8,147 nucleotides of DNA from a virus (IMGVR_UViG_2529292834_000016:1-8147), one strand, 5' to 3'. Shown: positions 1 to 8,147, counted from the first letter of the stretch. Numbers and translations are program-made. Notes: generated by a model from the letters alone, not told the origin.

Positions 1-276
1 TCGCAAACGACGAAAACTACGCTTTAGCAGCTTAATAACCTGCTTAGAGCCCTCTCTCCCTAGCCTCCGCTCTTAGGACGGGGATCAAGAGAGGTCAAAC
101 CCAAAAGAGATCGCGTGGAAGCCCTGCCTGGGGTTGAAGCGTTAAAACTTAATCAGGCTAGTTTGTTAGTGGCGTGTCCGTCCGCAGCTGGCAAGCGAAT
201 GTAAAGACTGACTAAGCATGTAGTACCGAGGATGTAGGAATTTCGGACGCGGGTTCAACTCCCGCCAGCTCCACCA
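1..276 (+). ncRNA. ssrA: tmRNA (SsrA), 3' ~276 nt; the 5' ~87 nt lie upstream of the window
   Basis: Sequence matches enterobacterial tmRNA as I recall it, from the tag-encoding region through the tRNA-like 3' domain, ending GGTTCAACTCCCGCCAGCTCCACCA at 252-276. Far longer than a typical att-core duplication, so this is the intact gene copy. Confidence 0.95.
3..35 (+). other. ssrA: tmRNA tag-peptide reading frame, ANDENYALAA plus TAA
   Basis: GCA AAC GAC GAA AAC TAC GCT TTA GCA GCT TAA read directly at 3-35; this is the canonical SsrA degradation tag. Confidence 0.9.
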
Positions 277-286
277 ATTAAAACAA

Positions 287-319
287 GGGGTTACGTGAAA
301 GCGTAGCCCCTTTTTCTTT
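287..319 (+). terminator. Candidate intrinsic terminator downstream of ssrA
   Basis: 9-bp stem GGGGTTACG (287-295) / CGTAGCCCC (302-310) with one G-U pair, 6-nt loop, followed by TTTTTCTTT at 311-319. Confidence 0.55.
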
Positions 320-393: not shown

Positions 394-612
394 TCAGAAA
401 CTCATGTGGCCTTGACCACCTTTTCCAGGATGTGGCGGCGCAGAAGAAATTAGATTCGGTTTTATAATGTGCCGTACAAACGTTTCATGAGTAACGAACG
501 TACAGCCACAATTTATATTTTGGCACTGGTTGTAACGTTCTTTTGTCGTAGCTGATACCTGAAAGCTGCTTCTGGTATGTGCTGCATGACCGCACTCTGG
601 ACAGTTCATCAT
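394..612 (-). CDS. ogr: Ogr/Delta-family zinc-finger late transcription activator, 72 aa from the internal Met
   Basis: MMNCPECGHAAH...CQNINC carries the CX2CX22CX4C spacing of P2 Ogr and resembles it closely. SD-like GGTGGGA sits ~8 nt upstream of ATG 610-612. The six-frame ORF's start at 660 adds 16 unlikely residues. Position after gene D matches P2. Confidence 0.85.
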   Translation of the reverse strand: MMNCPECGHAAHTRSSFQVSATTKERYNQCQNINCGCTFVTHETFVRHIIKPNLISSAPPHPGKGGQGHMSF

Positions 613-648
613 CGCTGTTATCCCACCACTCTTGCCGTAGTCGCAATA

Positions 649-676
649 ATGATACAGCATTATTCAATATTGAGAA
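649..676 (-). promoter_or_regulatory. Candidate sigma70 promoter for ogr
   Basis: On the minus strand, TTCTCA (676-671), 16-nt spacer, TATCAT (654-649), about 35 nt upstream of the ogr ATG in an AT-rich D-ogr spacer. Hexamer match only. Confidence 0.3.
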
Positions 677-680
677 CCAA

Positions 681-1781
681 TTATTCAATTTCAAGATCAT
701 CAATCTTTACTTCAAGCTCCATGCTGGTCGTAAATCCATTATCCGGGCTGACAGAATGCGTCAGGGTGGTAATGGTCCATTCTGCATCATCAATCGGCTG
801 CTTAAACCCCGTCACCTTCACCGGCATTTCCGTATAGAGATCAGCCCGCCCCTCAGCCAGCTGCAGGGAAAATGAAGCAACCCCACGCTGCAGACGTTCC
901 CACTGCATTTTTGCTGCGCGCTCTGCATTGCTCCGATTGGCATAGGTACGATTAAGAACCAGCACGTTTTCATCCGTTCCCACCAGATAATCGCCCTGTT
1001 TTGCTTCCGGCTCTTTGGGTGTGGTGGTTTTCTTTCGACGGCGCTTAACACTGGTTGTCTCTTTTTTCCTGGGTTCACGCGTATGCAACCAGCTGGCAAT
1101 AACACCGGTATAGGCACCACGATCAGCAAGGGTGAACCGATGACCGTCACCGGCTTTGCGTGTGATGGTGATAACCGGCAGCGGCTTGCCGCTTGCCGTT
1201 CTTCCCTGTCCCTGCCGGATAAACAGCAGATTCCCGTCTTTAACGGAAGCAATCGCCCCATACTGTCTCGCCAGTTTCATCAGAAAACTTGCATCGCTTT
1301 CATTGGTCTGGTCCAGATGATCCAGTGCCTTATCCGTCAGGTCTTTACCCAGCGCCACTTTGAGGTTATGCCGGGCGGCGATTTCCTTTACCACCTCCCC
1401 CACCGTTGTCTGATGCCATGATTTTTCGCGCCGTGTATTCAGGGTCTCACGGAAATCTGCACTACGCGCCCGGATGGTCAGTCGGTCAGGGGCACCGCTG
1501 TGTTCAATTTCATCCACGGTAAAAGCCCCTTTAGGGAAAAGCGGATGGCCTTTCCAGCCCAGCGCAAGCTGAATCACTGCCCCACGTCGCGGCAGGGCGA
1601 TCAGCCCGTCGGCATCGTCCAGCTCCAGATCAAGCTGGTCCGCTTCAAAGCCCCGGTTATCCGTCAGCGTCAGACTCATCAGGCGGGTATCCAGCACGGT
1701 CGTCACGTCCTTACCTTCAATGACGATACTGAAAGCCGGGCTTTTGCTGTTCAGGTTCAGGAGATCAGAATTAACGTTCAC
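681..1781 (-). CDS. D: P2 gpD-like tail protein (late control gene D family), 366 aa
   Basis: Length and sequence are consistent with the P2 gpD family and the gene sits between U and ogr. Starts with GTG at 1779-1781, preceded by GGAGGA, and overlaps the U stop as GTGA. Confidence 0.88.
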   Translation of the reverse strand: MNVNSDLLNLNSKSPAFSIVIEGKDVTTVLDTRLMSLTLTDNRGFEADQLDLELDDADGLIALPRRGAVIQLALGWKGHPLFPKGAFTVDEIEHSGAPDRLTIRARSADFRETLNTRREKSWHQTTVGEVVKEIAARHNLKVALGKDLTDKALDHLDQTNESDASFLMKLARQYGAIASVKDGNLLFIRQGQGRTASGKPLPVITITRKAGDGHRFTLADRGAYTGVIASWLHTREPRKKETTSVKRRRKKTTTPKEPEAKQGDYLVGTDENVLVLNRTYANRSNAERAAKMQWERLQRGVASFSLQLAEGRADLYTEMPVKVTGFKQPIDDAEWTITTLTHSVSPDNGFTTSMELEVKIDDLEIE

Positions 1782-2263
1782 TGCAGCAATCCTCCAACCG
1801 TGTTTTTAATCCCCCCAATCGCAGAGGCAGCAGAGTCCTGCAGGTTGCTGAGCTGGTCACTCAGGCTCCCGAACATGTCAGACAGCGACTCATCAACCCG
1901 TTTGAGGGTGATCGTAAACTCAATGCGCCGGGGCATTCCACTGGCAAAAAACTCCGTCTTTGTCTGGCTCAGACTCTCAATAACAAACATGCCGTAAATG
2001 GTTCCGCTGCCTTCAATCAAAGGCCAGGCTTTGCCCTGCTCTGCCATCAACTCCAGCGCCAGCAATGACAGCCTGCCTCCGGTCACTTCCGGCAGCAGAA
2101 CCCCGGACAGTGTCAGTGAATCATTATCCGGGCCAAGAAACTGCGTTGACGGGCGGCGGTTCACCCGGCTGTTGGCTGCATGTCGCCAGCTGCGCTGATA
2201 CTGCAGCTCCTGATAAGGGACAGTGCGCAACATAAATACATATAAACCCAGCACCATCATCAT
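1778..2263 (-). CDS. U: P2 gpU-like tail protein, ~160 aa
   Basis: Size and position between T and D match P2 gpU. Start ATG overlaps the T stop (ATGA at 2260-2263), with a G-rich SD inside the 3' end of T. Confidence 0.8.
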   Translation of the reverse strand: MMMVLGLYVFMLRTVPYQELQYQRSWRHAANSRVNRRPSTQFLGPDNDSLTLSGVLLPEVTGGRLSLLALELMAEQGKAWPLIEGSGTIYGMFVIESLSQTKTEFFASGMPRRIEFTITLKRVDESLSDMFGSLSDQLSNLQDSAASAIGGIKNTVGGLLQ

Positions 2264-5200
2264 GATTCATACCCCCCCTGATCGCTGAAATTGCTGCGCG
2301 CTTTTGCCCTGGCCCTGCGTTCCCGCTCGTCAAGCTGGCGTGCCACTTCACGGGCAATATCCTGCGCACTCTGTCCCGGCTGCGCGACGATATGAATGGG
2401 CGCATTTATCTCATAACGAATAACTGACGGCGGGCTGTCAGCCTTCACTGGCTGCGTCTGGTATGCCCTCGCAGGCAGACTGAACGGATGAAGCGGAGCC
2501 ACTTCTGCAGGTGTCGCAGCTACCCCCATCACGCCAGCAACGACAGAGGCCAGCGCAGCAGTACGCCGCCTGCTGGTGACATTTGCCGGTCCGTTCACAA
2601 TTTCAGGGCCATTTTCTCCAACAATGCCAAACTGCCCGCGTGGAATGATCCCCCCCGTGTCGTACATCCCTGCGTAAGCCGGGAACCCGCCTGGCGGCAG
2701 CACCACTTTGCCGTCACTGTTCACTGTGGCGGATTGCTGCTGCGTGACCTGCGCAGGCAGTTTCGCCTTTGCCGCCTCCTTACTGACAATACCGAGCTTT
2801 TCCAGTAGCCATGACACACCGGATTTAAGAGACTCCAGCGGGTGCATCACCCTATTCAGACCTTCCGCAAGCGCCTCACCAAACCGGCGCCCCATTGCAG
2901 CTGCGCTGTTCAGTTCTTCGGAAGTGGATTTAACCGGCGTAAGTAAATCACTGAACCAGCCCCACAAGGCCTGCACCCTGTCACCAATCCACTGGAACAT
3001 GGGCCTGAGCGGCTCAAAGGCGGCGCTGATGGGCGCTGCAGCGGCTTTGAACCCTTCCACCACGCCCCCCAGAAATGCACTGATGGGCTGCCAGTATTTC
3101 CACACAACCAGCGCCACACCAGCCAGCGCAGCCACAACCAGCCCTATCGGACTGAGCAGCGCACCCAGCATACCGGAAAGACCAGACAGCGCGCCGCGAA
3201 GTAATGCCAGCGGACCAGAAACAAGAAAACACAATACGCCACCGACAGCTGTCAGCCCACCCCGCAACGCCGCCAGCGGGTTCATCACCATACCGATAAC
3301 ATTACGGATACCTGACATACCGACACGGAACACGGCAAGCGGAGCACCTGCCACCGTTTTCAGTGCATTACCCGCTATTCCAACTGAGCGACGCAGGGAA
3401 TTAAGCGGGGCACTCAGCAACCCGACACTACCACCGGATGACGCCATACCCCGACGCAACAGGGAAAGTGGCGCACCTGCCAGCCATGACAGGGCACCGC
3501 CAGTACGTGTTACCGCTGCAGCAACGGAAGGTAATGTTTTTACACCCAGCACAGACAGGCCAAACCGAATCACCGCAATCGGCCCCAGCACAGCAGCCAC
3601 TGCCACGGCAAGTGTACCCAGCCCGACAGTGACAGCCGCCGTAGCCGCCGCCACTTTCATCAGCGTGCCAGCCAGCACGGGGTTCTGCTCCACCCAGCGA
3701 CGCAGCGCCCCGGTCACGCCCTTAACCATGCCCATAATATCCATCAGCGGCTGACGCAACGTTTCCCCCAGACTGCTGAAAGCGTTCTGCGCGCCAGTCT
3801 TAACCAGCAACCACTGCGCAGACAATGAATCCTTGTTAATGTCGGATTCTTTCTGCATGGAGCCATTAGCACCACTGCCTGATGTGAGTTTCAGCTGACG
3901 CTGCAGCTCCGGCAGGTTGTTAGCCAGCTTTGCCGCATCATCGCCAAACTCTTTACCAAAAATCATTGTCATGGCTGACAGGCGTTTATCCTGCGGCAGA
4001 TTGTTGACCTTCTCCAGAACCCGCTGAATGGTGCCCATGGCATCGGTGGTCATCTGCTTTTCAATCTCCGCAGGATTGAGTTTCAGCAGGTTCATACCTT
4101 CAAAGAAGCGTTTACTTTGCATGGTGGCAATGGACAGTTCACGCACCATGGCATTAGAGGCACTGGCGGCAATTTCCGGGGCAGCCCCAAGAGAAAGGAA
4201 TGTTGAACCCAGCGCAGCAGCCTTTCGGAAGTCAAGGCGGTCAGCCACGCCCCCCATACGCTGCAGGACGTTGATAATGTCCCCACCCTTTGACATAGCG
4301 TTATCGTCCAGGTAGTTCAGCGCATCGCCCAGTTGTTCAATATTGCGCGTCGGAACTTTATAGAGCTGCGCGATTTTCCCCAATCCTTCCGCCAGCTCAT
4401 CGGCGGGCAGCTCAAAGGCCGTTGCAGCTTTTGCCGCCGTGGATGCAAAGGCCAGCAGGTCACGTTTCTGGTCCTCAAAGGGATCGTCCTGGTCAGTCAC
4501 GCCCATGCGCGCGCCGCCTTCAACCAGCGCGGCATAGTCTATAGCACCATTCTCCATCGGCAGTTGCTCACTGGCAGCCTTAATGGCATCCTGCATGTCA
4601 TAAAACTGTTTTGTACGGTTGCCGTTATCGTCACGAAGCCCGTTTACCTGCTTTGCCACGCCTTTCATGGCATCTTCCATACTGGCATAGCTCTTAACTG
4701 CAGCCATAACCGGCGCGCCCATTGCCAGCCCCGCTGCCGTGGTGGTGGCCCCGGCTCCTGCAATGCGATCCCTTACCTCAAGACTCCTGGAGTATGCCGC
4801 ACGGGCGGCGTGCATTTTTCGCTGTTGCTCCCCGACACGTCGTAACCTTGCTTCCTGTTCAGAAAGCTGCCTGTTATAACGCATTGTTTCACGGGTAATG
4901 CGGGCCGTCGCGCTGGCGCCATCACTGGCTGAAATACCGGCACGATAAAGCTCTGCACGCACAAGTGCAGTCTGCTGCTGCAGCTTTTTCTGCCGTTCTT
5001 CCAGACGCTGAACAGCCAGCTGTTGACGGCCCAAAGCAACAACCTGCCGTTGAGAAGGCGGCCCCATCGCACCCAGCTCATGACTGAGTAAATTTGCACG
5101 CTGGCGGGCATAGTTCAGCCGGTCGCCCAGTTTCTGATTTTCTGCCTGTAGCTTTCGGAAGCTGTCCAGACTGCTCCCGGCCTGATCAAGCTGCTTTATT

Positions 5201-5325
5201 GCATCGCGGGATTTTTTGACAGCAGCAGCCAGCTCTTTTGAGCTGGCCTGCGCGGATCGAAATGGGCGGGTGAGCTTGTCAACCGCGTTCAGAATCACCT
5301 GCAGACGCAGGCTATTGTCACTCAT
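2260..5325 (-). CDS. T: Tail tape measure protein (gpT-like), 1021 aa
   Basis: Long ORF with an N-terminal coiled-coil-like Q/R/A-rich region, a central Gly/Ala-rich hydrophobic core and a C-terminal GG..IP.G.FGIVGENGPEIV motif typical of tape measures; sits immediately after the E/E' chaperone pair. Confidence 0.9.
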   Translation of the reverse strand: MSDNSLRLQVILNAVDKLTRPFRSAQASSKELAAAVKKSRDAIKQLDQAGSSLDSFRKLQAENQKLGDRLNYARQRANLLSHELGAMGPPSQRQVVALGRQQLAVQRLEERQKKLQQQTALVRAELYRAGISASDGASATARITRETMRYNRQLSEQEARLRRVGEQQRKMHAARAAYSRSLEVRDRIAGAGATTTAAGLAMGAPVMAAVKSYASMEDAMKGVAKQVNGLRDDNGNRTKQFYDMQDAIKAASEQLPMENGAIDYAALVEGGARMGVTDQDDPFEDQKRDLLAFASTAAKAATAFELPADELAEGLGKIAQLYKVPTRNIEQLGDALNYLDDNAMSKGGDIINVLQRMGGVADRLDFRKAAALGSTFLSLGAAPEIAASASNAMVRELSIATMQSKRFFEGMNLLKLNPAEIEKQMTTDAMGTIQRVLEKVNNLPQDKRLSAMTMIFGKEFGDDAAKLANNLPELQRQLKLTSGSGANGSMQKESDINKDSLSAQWLLVKTGAQNAFSSLGETLRQPLMDIMGMVKGVTGALRRWVEQNPVLAGTLMKVAAATAAVTVGLGTLAVAVAAVLGPIAVIRFGLSVLGVKTLPSVAAAVTRTGGALSWLAGAPLSLLRRGMASSGGSVGLLSAPLNSLRRSVGIAGNALKTVAGAPLAVFRVGMSGIRNVIGMVMNPLAALRGGLTAVGGVLCFLVSGPLALLRGALSGLSGMLGALLSPIGLVVAALAGVALVVWKYWQPISAFLGGVVEGFKAAAAPISAAFEPLRPMFQWIGDRVQALWGWFSDLLTPVKSTSEELNSAAAMGRRFGEALAEGLNRVMHPLESLKSGVSWLLEKLGIVSKEAAKAKLPAQVTQQQSATVNSDGKVVLPPGGFPAYAGMYDTGGIIPRGQFGIVGENGPEIVNGPANVTSRRRTAALASVVAGVMGVAATPAEVAPLHPFSLPARAYQTQPVKADSPPSVIRYEINAPIHIVAQPGQSAQDIAREVARQLDERERRARAKARSNFSDQGGYES

Positions 5326-5754
5326 CGCTGGCCCCGCTTCTCTGAATCGCTTTGTGCCGCCACTCCAGCACCTCAGTCAGCGGCATAACGTCAGTGATGG
5401 ACGGCGACCAGTGAAAAATGGTGGCGATATCCGCCACCAGGTCATCAATCGTCAGGCTGTCGGTAAACCGGCAAGCACCGACTTCTTCAACAAAAAAGTC
5501 ACCACCTCGACCGACAGCGCGGTGAGATCGGCGGGGTCCAGTTCAGCCATTTCCTGTGCGGTCAGCGTCGGGGTGGAAATACGCGGGATCACTGTCATCA
5601 TGGCCCCCACGTCCATATCCATAATGGCCTGCAGGCGGGTGCCGCGCAGCGCGCCGGACTGCGGCTTACGCAGCACAATTTCGGTGATTTGGGTTTTACC
5701 GCGCATGATGGGCGTATCCAGTTGTACGGTTTTTTCAGTCAGCTTGTCGTTCAT
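5318..5754 (-). CDS. E': gpE+E' fusion made by programmed -1 frameshift, ~145 aa
   Basis: After a -1 shift at T TTT TTG the frame stays open for 57 codons (VEEVGACRFTDSLTIDDLVADIATIFHWSPSITDVMPLTEVLEWRHKAIQRSGASDE) and stops at TGA 5318-5320, overlapping codons 2-3 of T. Confidence 0.65.
5452..5754 (-). CDS. E: Tail assembly chaperone gpE (zero-frame product), 100 aa
   Basis: Small ORF directly upstream of the tape measure gene; AGGAAA lies upstream of the ATG at 5752-5754; contains a slippery heptamer near its 3' end. Confidence 0.8.
   Translation of the reverse strand: MNDKLTEKTVQLDTPIMRGKTQITEIVLRKPQSGALRGTRLQAIMDMDVGAMMTVIPRISTPTLTAQEMAELDPADLTALSVEVVTFLLKKSVLAGLPTA
5491..5497 (-). other. 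Slippery heptamer T_TTT_TTG (X_XXY_YYZ), programmed -1 frameshift site
   Basis: Minus-strand codons ACT TTT TTG, i.e. Thr86-Phe87-Leu88 of E, place TTTTTTG in the canonical frame. Confidence 0.7.
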
Positions 5755-5808: not shown

Positions 5809-6324
5809 TCAGAGGCCAAGGGCGTTACGGTGCGCTTCCATCAGGTCCACACCGTCAACGATTTCAATCATGTTGACCACATCAACCTCATAGAGCACCT
5901 CGCCGTTAATGGTCAGCTTCGCGTAACTGTTGGTGCTGCTGACTTTGGTGGCGCTACTTTCTCCAGTTTTCCACTCGCCGGAATCCACCTCTTTATGACG
6001 CCCCCGCACAACCAGCTCAACGGCCTGCACTTCGCCGGTATCGTCACGCTGAATAGAGCCGGTAAAACGCAACTGGATACCGTCCACCGTGGCAGCTCCC
6101 ATCTGTTTGAATAACAGCAGTTCGGTGCCGCCGATTGAAAATTCCGTGTCCAGTGCGCCGTCATCCAGCCCCATATCCACATCCACCGCGCCCGGCATAC
6201 CGCCGCCGCGATACTTCTCAAACTTGCGGGTGAATTTCGGCAGGGTCAGGGACTCAACGATCCCCTGCCAGTTGTTCCCGTCGTTGAACAGGTTCAGATG
6301 TTTTAACTTGCGTGGTAATGCCAT
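5809..6324 (-). CDS. FII: Major tail tube protein (gpFII-like), 171 aa
   Basis: N-terminus MALPRKLKHLNLF... and length match P2 FII; AAGGGGGA precedes the ATG; lies 9 nt downstream of the sheath gene. Confidence 0.9.
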   Translation of the reverse strand: MALPRKLKHLNLFNDGNNWQGIVESLTLPKFTRKFEKYRGGGMPGAVDVDMGLDDGALDTEFSIGGTELLLFKQMGAATVDGIQLRFTGSIQRDDTGEVQAVELVVRGRHKEVDSGEWKTGESSATKVSSTNSYAKLTINGEVLYEVDVVNMIEIVDGVDLMEAHRNALGL

Positions 6325-6333
6325 GTATCCCCC

Positions 6334-7506
6334 TTATGCACTGACACGGCTGGCAAAATCGACCAGGTAGCGATCGGTGATGCGCTGGCGCAGCATCAGA
6401 TTTTCAAGCGGCGGCACAGGTGTGTAGTCGTAGTCGATGGTGAGTTTCCCGGCTTTCAGGGAGTCTTTATCGTTCACTGACTCATCCAGCCAGCAGTCTG
6501 CCCCGATGAGGTATCCCTGATTCACCAGGCTGCGTAATTTGGCGCGGATACCTTCGATAATGTCGCGGGCCAGTGACGGATTCAGTGGCTTATCCACCGC
6601 CCACATATGCCCCTCTGCAATCGTGTCAGCCAGCACCTGCGCCGTGCGGGTGTAGTTCTCAAACGCAAACAATGGATCGTCACTGAGGCAGCGGGAACCC
6701 CAGAAGCGGAACCCGTCTTTACAGATCAGCGTGGTGACGTCGTTCTGGTTCAGCAGTCCCGCATCCGTTGCCGGGTCCTGCAGATCCCAGAACACATCAG
6801 CGGAAATACCGGTGACGCCATTCACACCCACGTTGGACAGGGTTTTATGCCAACCGGTCTGTTCGTCGATTTTGGCGCGCAAACCGAGCGCACGTGCAGA
6901 GGCGTAAGCCGTCGCATCGGCTTTTAGCACGGTGTCAAAGTTGATGAAATCAGGCCAGATCAGCATCCCTTCTCGCTGGCTGAAATTGTCCCGGTAAGCA
7001 ATGGCTTCCTCCAGCGTCTTGCAGCCATAGGCAGACAGGTAGGCAAACCCGCGCAGGCTCTGCGCAATACTCATCAGCTCAGTGGCTACCGCCTGCGTGT
7101 CGTGCCCCGGCACACCGAGAATGCGCGGATTAACTTTCAGCTGCGACTGCGCAGAAAGCAGCGCTTTCATCCCCGTTTTTTTACCGTCGGACGTGACGCC
7201 ACCGATAATATTGGAGGTGGTTTCCGCTTCGGTTTCGCCCTGCGCCACGCGCACAACAACCGTTACGGGCTTTGACTGGTCGGCAATCGCATCAAGCGAA
7301 CGGGCCAGCGTGCCGGACTCGCCTGCTTTACCGCTGGCCTCCAGCACATCCGTCAGCAGAACCGGCTTATTGAGAGGGAATACGGACGCATCAGCATCAT
7401 CGCCGGTGCAGACCATGCCCACGATAGCGGTGCTCACCGTGGTGATAGATCGGGTGCCCTCGTTGACTTCAACAACGCGCACCCCGTGGTGGTAATCCTG
7501 AGCCAT
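6334..7506 (-). CDS. FI: Contractile tail sheath protein (gpFI-like), 390 aa
   Basis: Strong similarity along its length to P2 FI as I recall it ([47 protein letters not shown]); AGGAGG lies 8 nt upstream of the ATG at 7504-7506. Confidence 0.93.
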
Positions 7507-7582: not shown

Positions 7583-7600
7583 TGTCCTGTTAATCACACA
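7583..7600 (-). promoter_or_regulatory. Candidate Ogr-dependent late promoter element (TGT-N12-ACA dyad) for the FI operon
   Basis: TGTGTGATTAACAGGACA on the minus strand, centred ~85 bp upstream of the FI ATG, consistent with a -55 activator site plus a ~30-nt leader. No good -35 is present, as expected for activator-dependent P2 late promoters. Confidence 0.5.
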
Positions 7601-8147
7601 ATGTCGCAGGATATTTGCGGTATAACGTTGAGACACCCACATCAAAAATTAAAGCTACCCGCTGCCGTGTTTCACCTGCAGCAATTAACCTGCCTGCCTG
7701 CGCCCATTGTTCTGGCGTCAGTTTTGGTCTTCGCCCTCCGATCCTGCCTTTAGCTCTTGCGGCTTCCAGCCCCGCACGGGTTCGTTCCACTATCAGCTCG
7801 CGTTCCATCTCCGCCAGTGCCCCCATAACGTGAAAGAAAAACCGCCCCATCGGAGTACTGGTGTCTATGCTGTCAGTCAGACTGCGGAAATTAACCCCGC
7901 GCTGTCGGAGTTCTTCTATCAGGGTCACAAGGTGTCGCATGCTTCGCCCCAGCCTGTCGAGTTTCCATACAACCAGCGTGTCTCCCTCTGATAACGTCCT
8001 GAGCAACCTTTTTAGCCCTGGCCTGTCTGCTGTTTTTCCGCTCATTTTGTCCTCAAAAATTAGCTCACATCCTGAACGTTCCAGTGCATCACGCTGCAGC
8101 GCTGTGTTTTGCTCACTTGTTGATACGCGCACATAACCGACTAACAT
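7590..8147 (-). CDS. Serine-recombinase DNA invertase (Hin/Gin/Pin/Cin family), 185 aa, complete
   Basis: MLVGYVRVSTSEQ N-terminus with catalytic Ser, conserved GDTLVVWKLDRLGRS and SLTDSIDTSTPMGRFFFHVMGALAEMERELIVERT, and a C-terminal HTH (VGVSTLYRKY). The start codon is the last 3 nt of the window. Confidence 0.92.
   Translation of the reverse strand: MLVGYVRVSTSEQNTALQRDALERSGCELIFEDKMSGKTADRPGLKRLLRTLSEGDTLVVWKLDRLGRSMRHLVTLIEELRQRGVNFRSLTDSIDTSTPMGRFFFHVMGALAEMERELIVERTRAGLEAARAKGRIGGRRPKLTPEQWAQAGRLIAAGETRQRVALIFDVGVSTLYRKYPATLCD

Follow-up and report, generated by a model that had tools for sequence, protein, structure and literature searches.

In phage P2, whose tail genes follow the FETUD order, gene E carries a TTTTTTG frameshift site identical in sequence to the one in the DNA described here (PMC3091744), and the stop codon of U overlaps the start codon of D. 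In the G-F-D genes of phage 186, the stop codon of F, the U homologue, and the start codon of D share a 4-nt overlap, and the ribosome-binding site (RBS) of D is embedded in Gly-Gly codons. The locus described here has the same gene order, frameshift site, U/D overlap and Gly-Gly RBS. Among co-oriented genes, no spacing is nearly as frequent as -4 (NTGA), -1 and -8 (NTGNNTGA) spacings are also enriched, and -4 and -8 overlaps are classic geometries of translational coupling (review PMC12548453). Coupling was detected in 13 of 14 overlapping pairs tested (PMC6728339).

The window, the whole 8,147-nt stretch of viral DNA analysed, is the right-hand end of a prophage of the Fels-2 type (P2 family, Peduoviridae) inserted at ssrA, since its gene set, its tmRNA/attP core and its DNA identity to relatives all point to this origin. 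The DNA is 94-97% identical to Fels-2, SEN8, SopEPhi, RE2010 and Yersinia phage MLG42 (Felsduovirus and Elveevirus phages) and 97% identical to ssrA-adjacent prophages of E. coli chromosomes. The Pfam matches run in the order Phage_sheath, Phage_tube, Phage_TAC_7, PhageMin_Tail, Phage_P2_GpU, Phage_GPD and Ogr_Delta, so that sheath, tube, E/E', tape measure, U, D and an ogr-type activator lie on one strand in the P2-like FETUD order. The identities of T, U, D and E' proposed in an earlier note on this DNA agree with both Pfam and PHROGs. The features are as follows.

7590-8147, minus strand: serine invertase, 185 aa (Pfam Resolvase + HTH_7)
6334-7506, minus strand: sheath FI (Pfam Phage_sheath)
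5809-6324, minus strand: tube FII (Pfam Phage_tube)
5452-5754, minus strand: E, tail assembly chaperone, 100 aa (Pfam Phage_TAC_7)
5491-5497, minus strand: slippery heptamer T_TTT_TTG in E, at which a -1 shift gives E+E'
2260-5325, minus strand: T, tail tape measure protein, 1021 aa (ORF list, Pfam PhageMin_Tail), stop TGA 2262-2260
2271-2278, minus strand: RBS of U, GGGGGGGT, in the C-terminal Gly-Gly codons GGG GGG of T (…DQGGYES*), last G 8 nt from the ATG
1778-2263, minus strand: U, P2 gpU-like tail protein, 161 aa, 486 nt (Pfam Phage_P2_GpU, E=2.8e-45)
1790-1795, minus strand: RBS of D, GGAGGA, in two C-terminal Gly codons GGA GGA of U (…TVGGLLQ*), spacer 8 nt
681-1781, minus strand: D, baseplate hub ("late control D") protein, 366 aa, 1101 nt (Pfam Phage_GPD)
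394-612, minus strand: Ogr/Delta zinc-finger activator (Pfam Ogr_Delta)
1-276, plus strand: 3' part of tmRNA, 5' end cut (Rfam RF00023, 183 bits)

T matches in length and position the T genes of Yersinia phage MLG42 and E. coli E7476, which also encode 1021 aa. T of Fels-2 and SEN8 is shorter, at 935 aa, and lacks a single block of 86 residues (611-696; 3238-3495, minus strand) with Gly/Ala/Leu-rich "PLxxLR"-like segments. Tail length is set by the length of the tape measure, and the 86 extra residues therefore predict a longer tail.

At the ssrA end, positions 1-276 of the plus strand hold the 3' three-quarters of the tmRNA gene, cut at the window edge. A 22-nt core at 256-277 (CAACTCCCGCCAGCTCCACCAA), the last part of the tmRNA, matches the Fels-2 attP fragment; this core marks the junction between prophage and chromosome, with the tmRNA 3' end supplied by the phage. 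An ARAGORN scan of the window for tRNA and tmRNA returned nothing, the window edge having truncated the tmRNA, which Rfam did detect. In phage-derived DNA 9 nt past the tmRNA 3' end, a terminator-like hairpin (AAGGGGTTACGTGAAAGCGTAGCCCCTT) is followed by TTTCTTT (285-312, plus strand). A near-identical copy of this sequence lies at the end of the Fels-2 record, and the hairpin may terminate ssrA transcription in the lysogen. The neighbouring ogr ORF is open from an ATG at 660 (394-660, minus strand; 88 aa), and the start at 612 (ATGATGAAC..., a tandem ATG) gives 72 aa; the family domain and the NCBI annotation fit the 72-aa product from 612. After the ogr stop, at about 386-362, a stem-loop with a T-run (AACCCGC-TTTAATG-GCGGGTT-TTTTT) was read by eye and is unlisted by the terminator scan. 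At the opposite end of the window, the Hin/Gin-type serine invertase has its ATG at the last base. The invertase of E. coli E7476 adjoins oppositely oriented tail-fibre and tail-fibre-assembly genes, an arrangement suggesting that an invertible segment for host range lies immediately beyond the window.

Five ORFs in other frames or on the other strand (1500-1997, 1998-2198, 2065-2235 and 2708-3754 on the plus strand and 2124-2405 on the minus strand) were taken as non-coding, having no match in Pfam; the two scanned against PHROGs (1500-1997 and 2708-3754) had no match there either. The longest, 2708-3754, encodes 348 aa antisense to T and most likely exists only because the opposite, coding strand is GC-rich and Ala/Gly-rich.

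The coordinates of the junctions, all on the minus strand, were checked by script and by eye. The ATG of U overlaps the stop of T as ATGA at 2263-2260 (U ATG 2263-2261, T TGA 2262-2260), and the GTG of D overlaps the stop of U as GTGA at 1781-1778 (D GTG 1781-1779, U TGA 1780-1778), as the earlier note had described. Both are -4 junctions of the NTGA type, the second codon starts with A in each pair (ATG in U, AAC in D), and U and D match their family profiles from residue 1. The GGAGGA of D was previously placed 11 nt upstream; it lies at 1795-1790, with 8 nt between it and the GTG and with its first G 14 nt upstream, so that 11 results from neither count. These overlaps are real but ordinary, being the commonest junction type in bacteria and already annotated as such in public records.

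Both RBSs lie within Gly codons of the upstream gene. The anti-Shine-Dalgarno (anti-SD) duplex energy is -11.3 kcal/mol for the RBS of U, whose G-run is kept in relatives, and -9.3 kcal/mol for that of D, versus -3.1 to -6.0 kcal/mol for the alternative starts of D. Among distinct sequences, the Gly codons in the RBS window before D are GGA or GGG in 99% (Fels-2), 100% (P2) and 96% (186) of cases, and these two codons make up 40%, 25% and 27%, respectively, of the Gly codons elsewhere in U and D. Within the RBS window, GGA and GGG still interchange, and the Fisher p-values for the codon bias are inflated because the sequences are related. The trend itself is clear in all three clades: the RBS of D is kept by selection for translation of D. 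The value of this result is modest: it is clean comparative evidence that codon choice in the upstream genes maintains the RBSs of both U and D.

An overlap alone means little, because an NTG before a TGA stop is expected by chance in about three-quarters of cases. The U/D overlap is present in 75 of 76 scorable loci of the Fels-2 clade (the set comprises 80 loci, 4 of them without a U/D junction scorable by script) and in 80 of 80 loci of the 186 clade, and a 1-nt overlap is present in 79 of 80 loci of the P2 clade. This conservation is not due to chance. In the Fels-2 clade, the U/D junction is the -4 type, with GTGA in 71-77 loci and ATGA in 4-5, and the T/U junction is -4 ATGA in 61-68 loci and -1 TAATG in 11, where the ranges reflect different scripts. 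In the 186 clade, U/D is -4 ATGA in all 80 loci, and T and U are separated by a gap of +3 to +14 nt with an RBS of its own for U; in the P2 clade, U/D is -1 TAATG in the 79 loci, and the T/U gap is mostly +14 nt, again with its own RBS. The U/D overlap persists in three clades between which gpD is only about 53% identical, and is thus an ancient and conserved trait. Specific to the Fels-2 clade are the GTG start and the T/U overlap; the family can do without the latter, because P2 and 186 have T/U gaps of 3-14 nt.

Three loci of the Fels-2 set depart from this pattern. The window has a run of six G in U at 1811-1816 (ATTGGGGGGATT); one locus (L010) has seven (at about 2470-2480), which truncates U. 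In a second (L055, about 2500), the whole U/D junction is deleted, and in a third (L042), a different sequence stands where U and codons 1-8 of D would be. All three are likely decayed prophages or sequencing or assembly errors.

We consider, with good confidence, that the junctions are the ordinary stop/start overlaps of a late tail operon FI-FII-E/E'-T-U-D, with U starting at ATG 2263 and D at GTG 1781, and that termination-reinitiation is the most likely mode of their translation. In this mechanism, a ribosome ending at the TGA would be held or recaptured by the RBS 8 nt upstream and would reinitiate at the adjacent NTG, and fresh initiation at the same site probably contributes some of the product. 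The outcome would be the production of low-copy tail-tip proteins from one mRNA in roughly fixed proportions. Translational coupling of the T, U and D genes is likely in view of indirect evidence, namely the junction geometry, the selection on the RBS and the coupling rates published for other pairs. The sequences compared show the start positions, the conservation of the overlaps and the selection on the RBS, and from these the occurrence of coupling and its degree are inferred. The tightly coupled expression proposed in the earlier note is plausible. The overlap does not prove it, because among the 14 pairs mentioned above are five -4 pairs of E. coli, of which three showed strong coupling in reporter assays, one about 60% and one none (PMC6728339). 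A literature search found no ribosome profiling, proteomics or N-terminal data for Fels-2-like phages or prophages.

The overlaps might instead be a by-product of genome compaction, with U and D translated by fresh binding at their own RBSs and with little dependence on the upstream gene. We think this unlikely, though it has real points in its favour. The RBSs of U and D are both strong. Folds of 100 nt at the three junctions, compared with shuffled sequences, revealed no RNA structure that would mask the start sites (z = 0.15, 1.52 and 0.43). Coupling through RNA unfolding is therefore unsupported, and U and D could initiate independently. The bioBF genes of E. coli, a -4 pair, showed no coupling (PMC6728339), the -4 spacing is perhaps common merely because it evolves easily (PMC12548453), and P2 and 186 manage with T/U gaps and separate RBSs. 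However, the majority of tested overlapping pairs are coupled, the U/D overlap has been retained in three clades despite the divergence of gpD, and a terminating ribosome occupies the start site, so that termination and initiation must influence each other to some extent. We therefore favour ordinary overlaps with termination-reinitiation.

The region upstream of T allows a more elaborate arrangement. The heptamer T_TTT_TTG in E is in the correct phase for a P2-like frameshift, and the -1 frame is open to the TGA at 5320-5318. The E'/T junction (ATGAGTGA, 5325-5318, minus strand) contains the ATG of T (5325-5323) and the TGA of E' (5320-5318) and forms an 8-nt overlap, annotated alike in Fels-2 and E. 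coli E7476. The earlier note had nested the stop of E' in the start of T; the overlap stands, and the stop sits 2 nt past the T ATG rather than inside it. The RBS of T is weak (anti-SD duplex -6.6 kcal/mol), and the T ATG lies 127 nt beyond the stop of E. Since the start of T has a weak RBS, is far from the E stop and is in the context of the E' stop, T may possibly be fed by ribosomes that have translated E'. On this basis, the three overlaps could form a translation relay of fixed ratio, in which T is fed mainly by frameshifted E' ribosomes and the GTG lowers D relative to U; we regard such a relay as doubtful, with only a small chance of being right. If true, the level of tape measure would be linked to that of its E+E' chaperone. 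The pyocin entries contain 6 chains of PA0626, the U homologue, and 3 chains of the D homologue, and a lower output of D than of U through the weaker GTG start is a speculation in line with these numbers. Tailed phages in general might use such a relay, by analogy with the same -8 junction at T/H of lambda; an overlap of this kind between a frameshift ORF and a tape measure gene, common to lambda, is a possible way of setting protein ratios.

Inside E', 51 nt 3' of the frameshift site, a terminator-like hairpin (TGGTGGCGGATATCGCCACCA) is followed by TTTTT (5439-5419, minus strand). Fels-2, SEN8, MLG42 and E. coli retain the stem but have an interrupted T-run (ATCTTTC), and 186 does not retain the stem. 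With the T-run broken in relatives and no stem in 186, a role as a terminator was rejected, and the hairpin is, from this comparison, probably just coding sequence.

The sole genuine ambiguity of start position in the region, and a small one, is which ATG of ATGATGATG begins U. The T/U context reads GGGGGGGTATGAATC-ATG-ATG-ATG-GTG, with three tandem ATGs, the second at 2260-2258 and the third at 2257-2255. No earlier start is possible, because an in-frame TGA lies at 2269-2267, two codons upstream. The three adjacent ATGs are all in frame and have acceptable RBS spacing, and a 160-aa entry beginning at the second ATG exists (WP_354676433.1). U could therefore begin at the second ATG (2260, a TGATG junction of the -1 type) or the third (2257), which we hold to be improbable. 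In 11 relatives, the stop of T is a TAA that shares one base with the same first ATG (TAATG), gpU of P2 and 186 (MMLALG…) can be aligned from the first ATG with MMMVLG…, and phrog_76 matches U residues 1-160. The 161-aa U is also dominant in public calls: its exact sequence occurs in at least 1000 contigs, the 160-aa call from the second ATG in 4, and the 159-aa form from the third ATG in none of the public protein calls searched. Initiation at the first ATG, 2263, is thus favoured by the sequence comparison and the public gene calls, and the start given in the earlier note holds. The predicted N-terminal peptide is MMMVLGLYVFMLR from the first ATG, MMVLGLYVFMLR from the second and MVLGLYVFMLR from the third.

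For D, seven independent lines (start-codon scan, alignment, conservation, pN/pS, structure and PHROG, RBS energy and annotation) agree that GTG 1781 is the true start, as first proposed. The U/D sequence in the frame of D reads ...TAA AAA CAC GGT TGG AGG ATT GCT GCA GTG AAC, and the in-frame TAA at 1808-1806 is the upstream limit for any start of D. In a scan for ATG, GTG and TTG from this TAA to codon 26 of D, GTG 1781 is the only canonical start. The gpD proteins of P2 and 186, annotated with ATG starts, align gap-free from residue 1 with D of the window. In 82 of 84 related loci, this same position holds the earliest start following the upstream stop (GTG in 77, ATG in 5), and the swap between GTG and ATG is silent in the last codon of U, which is CAG/CAA (Gln) or TCG/TCA (Ser). 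The assignment of D to the gpD/Phage_GPD family follows from PF05954 (89.3 bits versus a cut-off of 30.1) together with a nearly full-length match to 6u5h_C, the homologue in the R2 pyocin baseplate. The predicted N-terminal tryptic peptide of D from the GTG is MNVNSDLLNLNSK, in which the initiator Met should remain, since Asn as second residue prevents its cleavage by Met aminopeptidase.

Initiation of D further downstream, with the GTGA overlap a coincidence, is very hard to sustain. The next ATG is codon 35, as the earlier note stated, preceded by canonical starts at GTG codon 26 and GTG codon 29. ATG is the commoner start codon, and an AAGGA motif lies 5' of GTG codon 29, with a weak duplex energy of -6.0 kcal/mol. 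However, codons 2-34 have a pN/pS of 0.30 (0.36 for codons 2-13 and 0.25 for 14-34) versus 0.10 in the rest of the gene, a level of purifying selection that indicates coding sequence, and none of the alternative start codons is conserved in relatives (V, I or L stands in place of M35, I or A in place of V26 and A or T in place of V29). The N-terminal region is also spanned by homologues: the match to 6u5h_C (E=6e-53) covers D residues 14-354 with residue 2 of the pyocin protein on D residue 14, so that the solved homologue begins at D residue 13-14, and phrog_52 matches D residues 1-365. Public data hold no truncated gene call, and the 341-, 338- and 332-aa forms are absent among about 15 billion public proteins. 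On this comparative evidence, a downstream start is effectively refuted already.

D is identical to RefSeq WP_001397626.1 (366 aa; E. coli 2741950), and the same start, 1101-nt gene and 4-nt overlap are annotated in Fels-2, SEN8 and Yersinia phage MLG42 and by the NCBI pipeline in E. coli E7476. The concern that the GTG start is easy to mis-call is not borne out, because the identical protein is in RefSeq, every annotated record inspected uses GTG 1781 and no truncated calls are public. Entries of 302 aa named "baseplate assembly protein" in the 90%-identity cluster of D were suspected as start mis-calls and rejected, since they are gpJ-like, unrelated proteins about 25% identical to D; their presence is a quirk of the cluster table without biological meaning.

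A fusion of U and D by a -1 frameshift on T_AAA_AAC (1808-1802) near the end of U, conceivable in that D is in the -1 frame relative to U and a shift on AAA-AAC lands just beyond the TAA at 1808-1806, deserves practically no credence, since the A-run is unconserved (relatives have agaacacgg, ccagcaccg or gatccacgg), T_AAA_AAC is not a canonical bacterial slippery site, and no fusion proteins appeared among the protein cluster members.

The locus, with the exact starts of U and D, is already in public annotation (RefSeq and phage records) and contains nothing new in this respect. The significance of the analysis beyond annotation quality is slight, in that it confirms starts of U and D already in use.

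The locus is most similar to Fels-2 of S. Typhimurium LT2 (NC_010463; STM2697 for T, STM2696 for U and STM2695 for D), with 95.7% DNA identity across the region, the same -8 (E'/T), -4 (T/U) and -4 (U/D) junctions, a 486-nt U, a 1101-nt D and the same ssrA attachment core; it differs from Fels-2 in the 86 additional residues of T. Phage 186 differs in that its D starts with ATG (ATGA), 12 nt separate G and F, and its gpD is about 54% identical. P2 differs in that its U/D overlap is 1 nt (TAATG) and its T and U are 14 nt apart, with AAGGAGG as a distinct site. In the R2 pyocin, PA0626 corresponds to U and 6u5h_C to D. Compared with generic NTGA pairs, in which TG is common to stop and start, the second codon starts with A and the RBS lies in the upstream gene, no difference was found. 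In lambda (L247, NC_001416, 10115-13429), the frameshift ORF T and H are joined by a -8 junction, H and M by -4 and M and L by -1; the lambda genes belong to an unrelated, non-contractile tail module, and the likeness is in operon layout only. As the lambda series and the general spacing statistics indicate, all three junction types are standard for phage tail modules and for prokaryotes.
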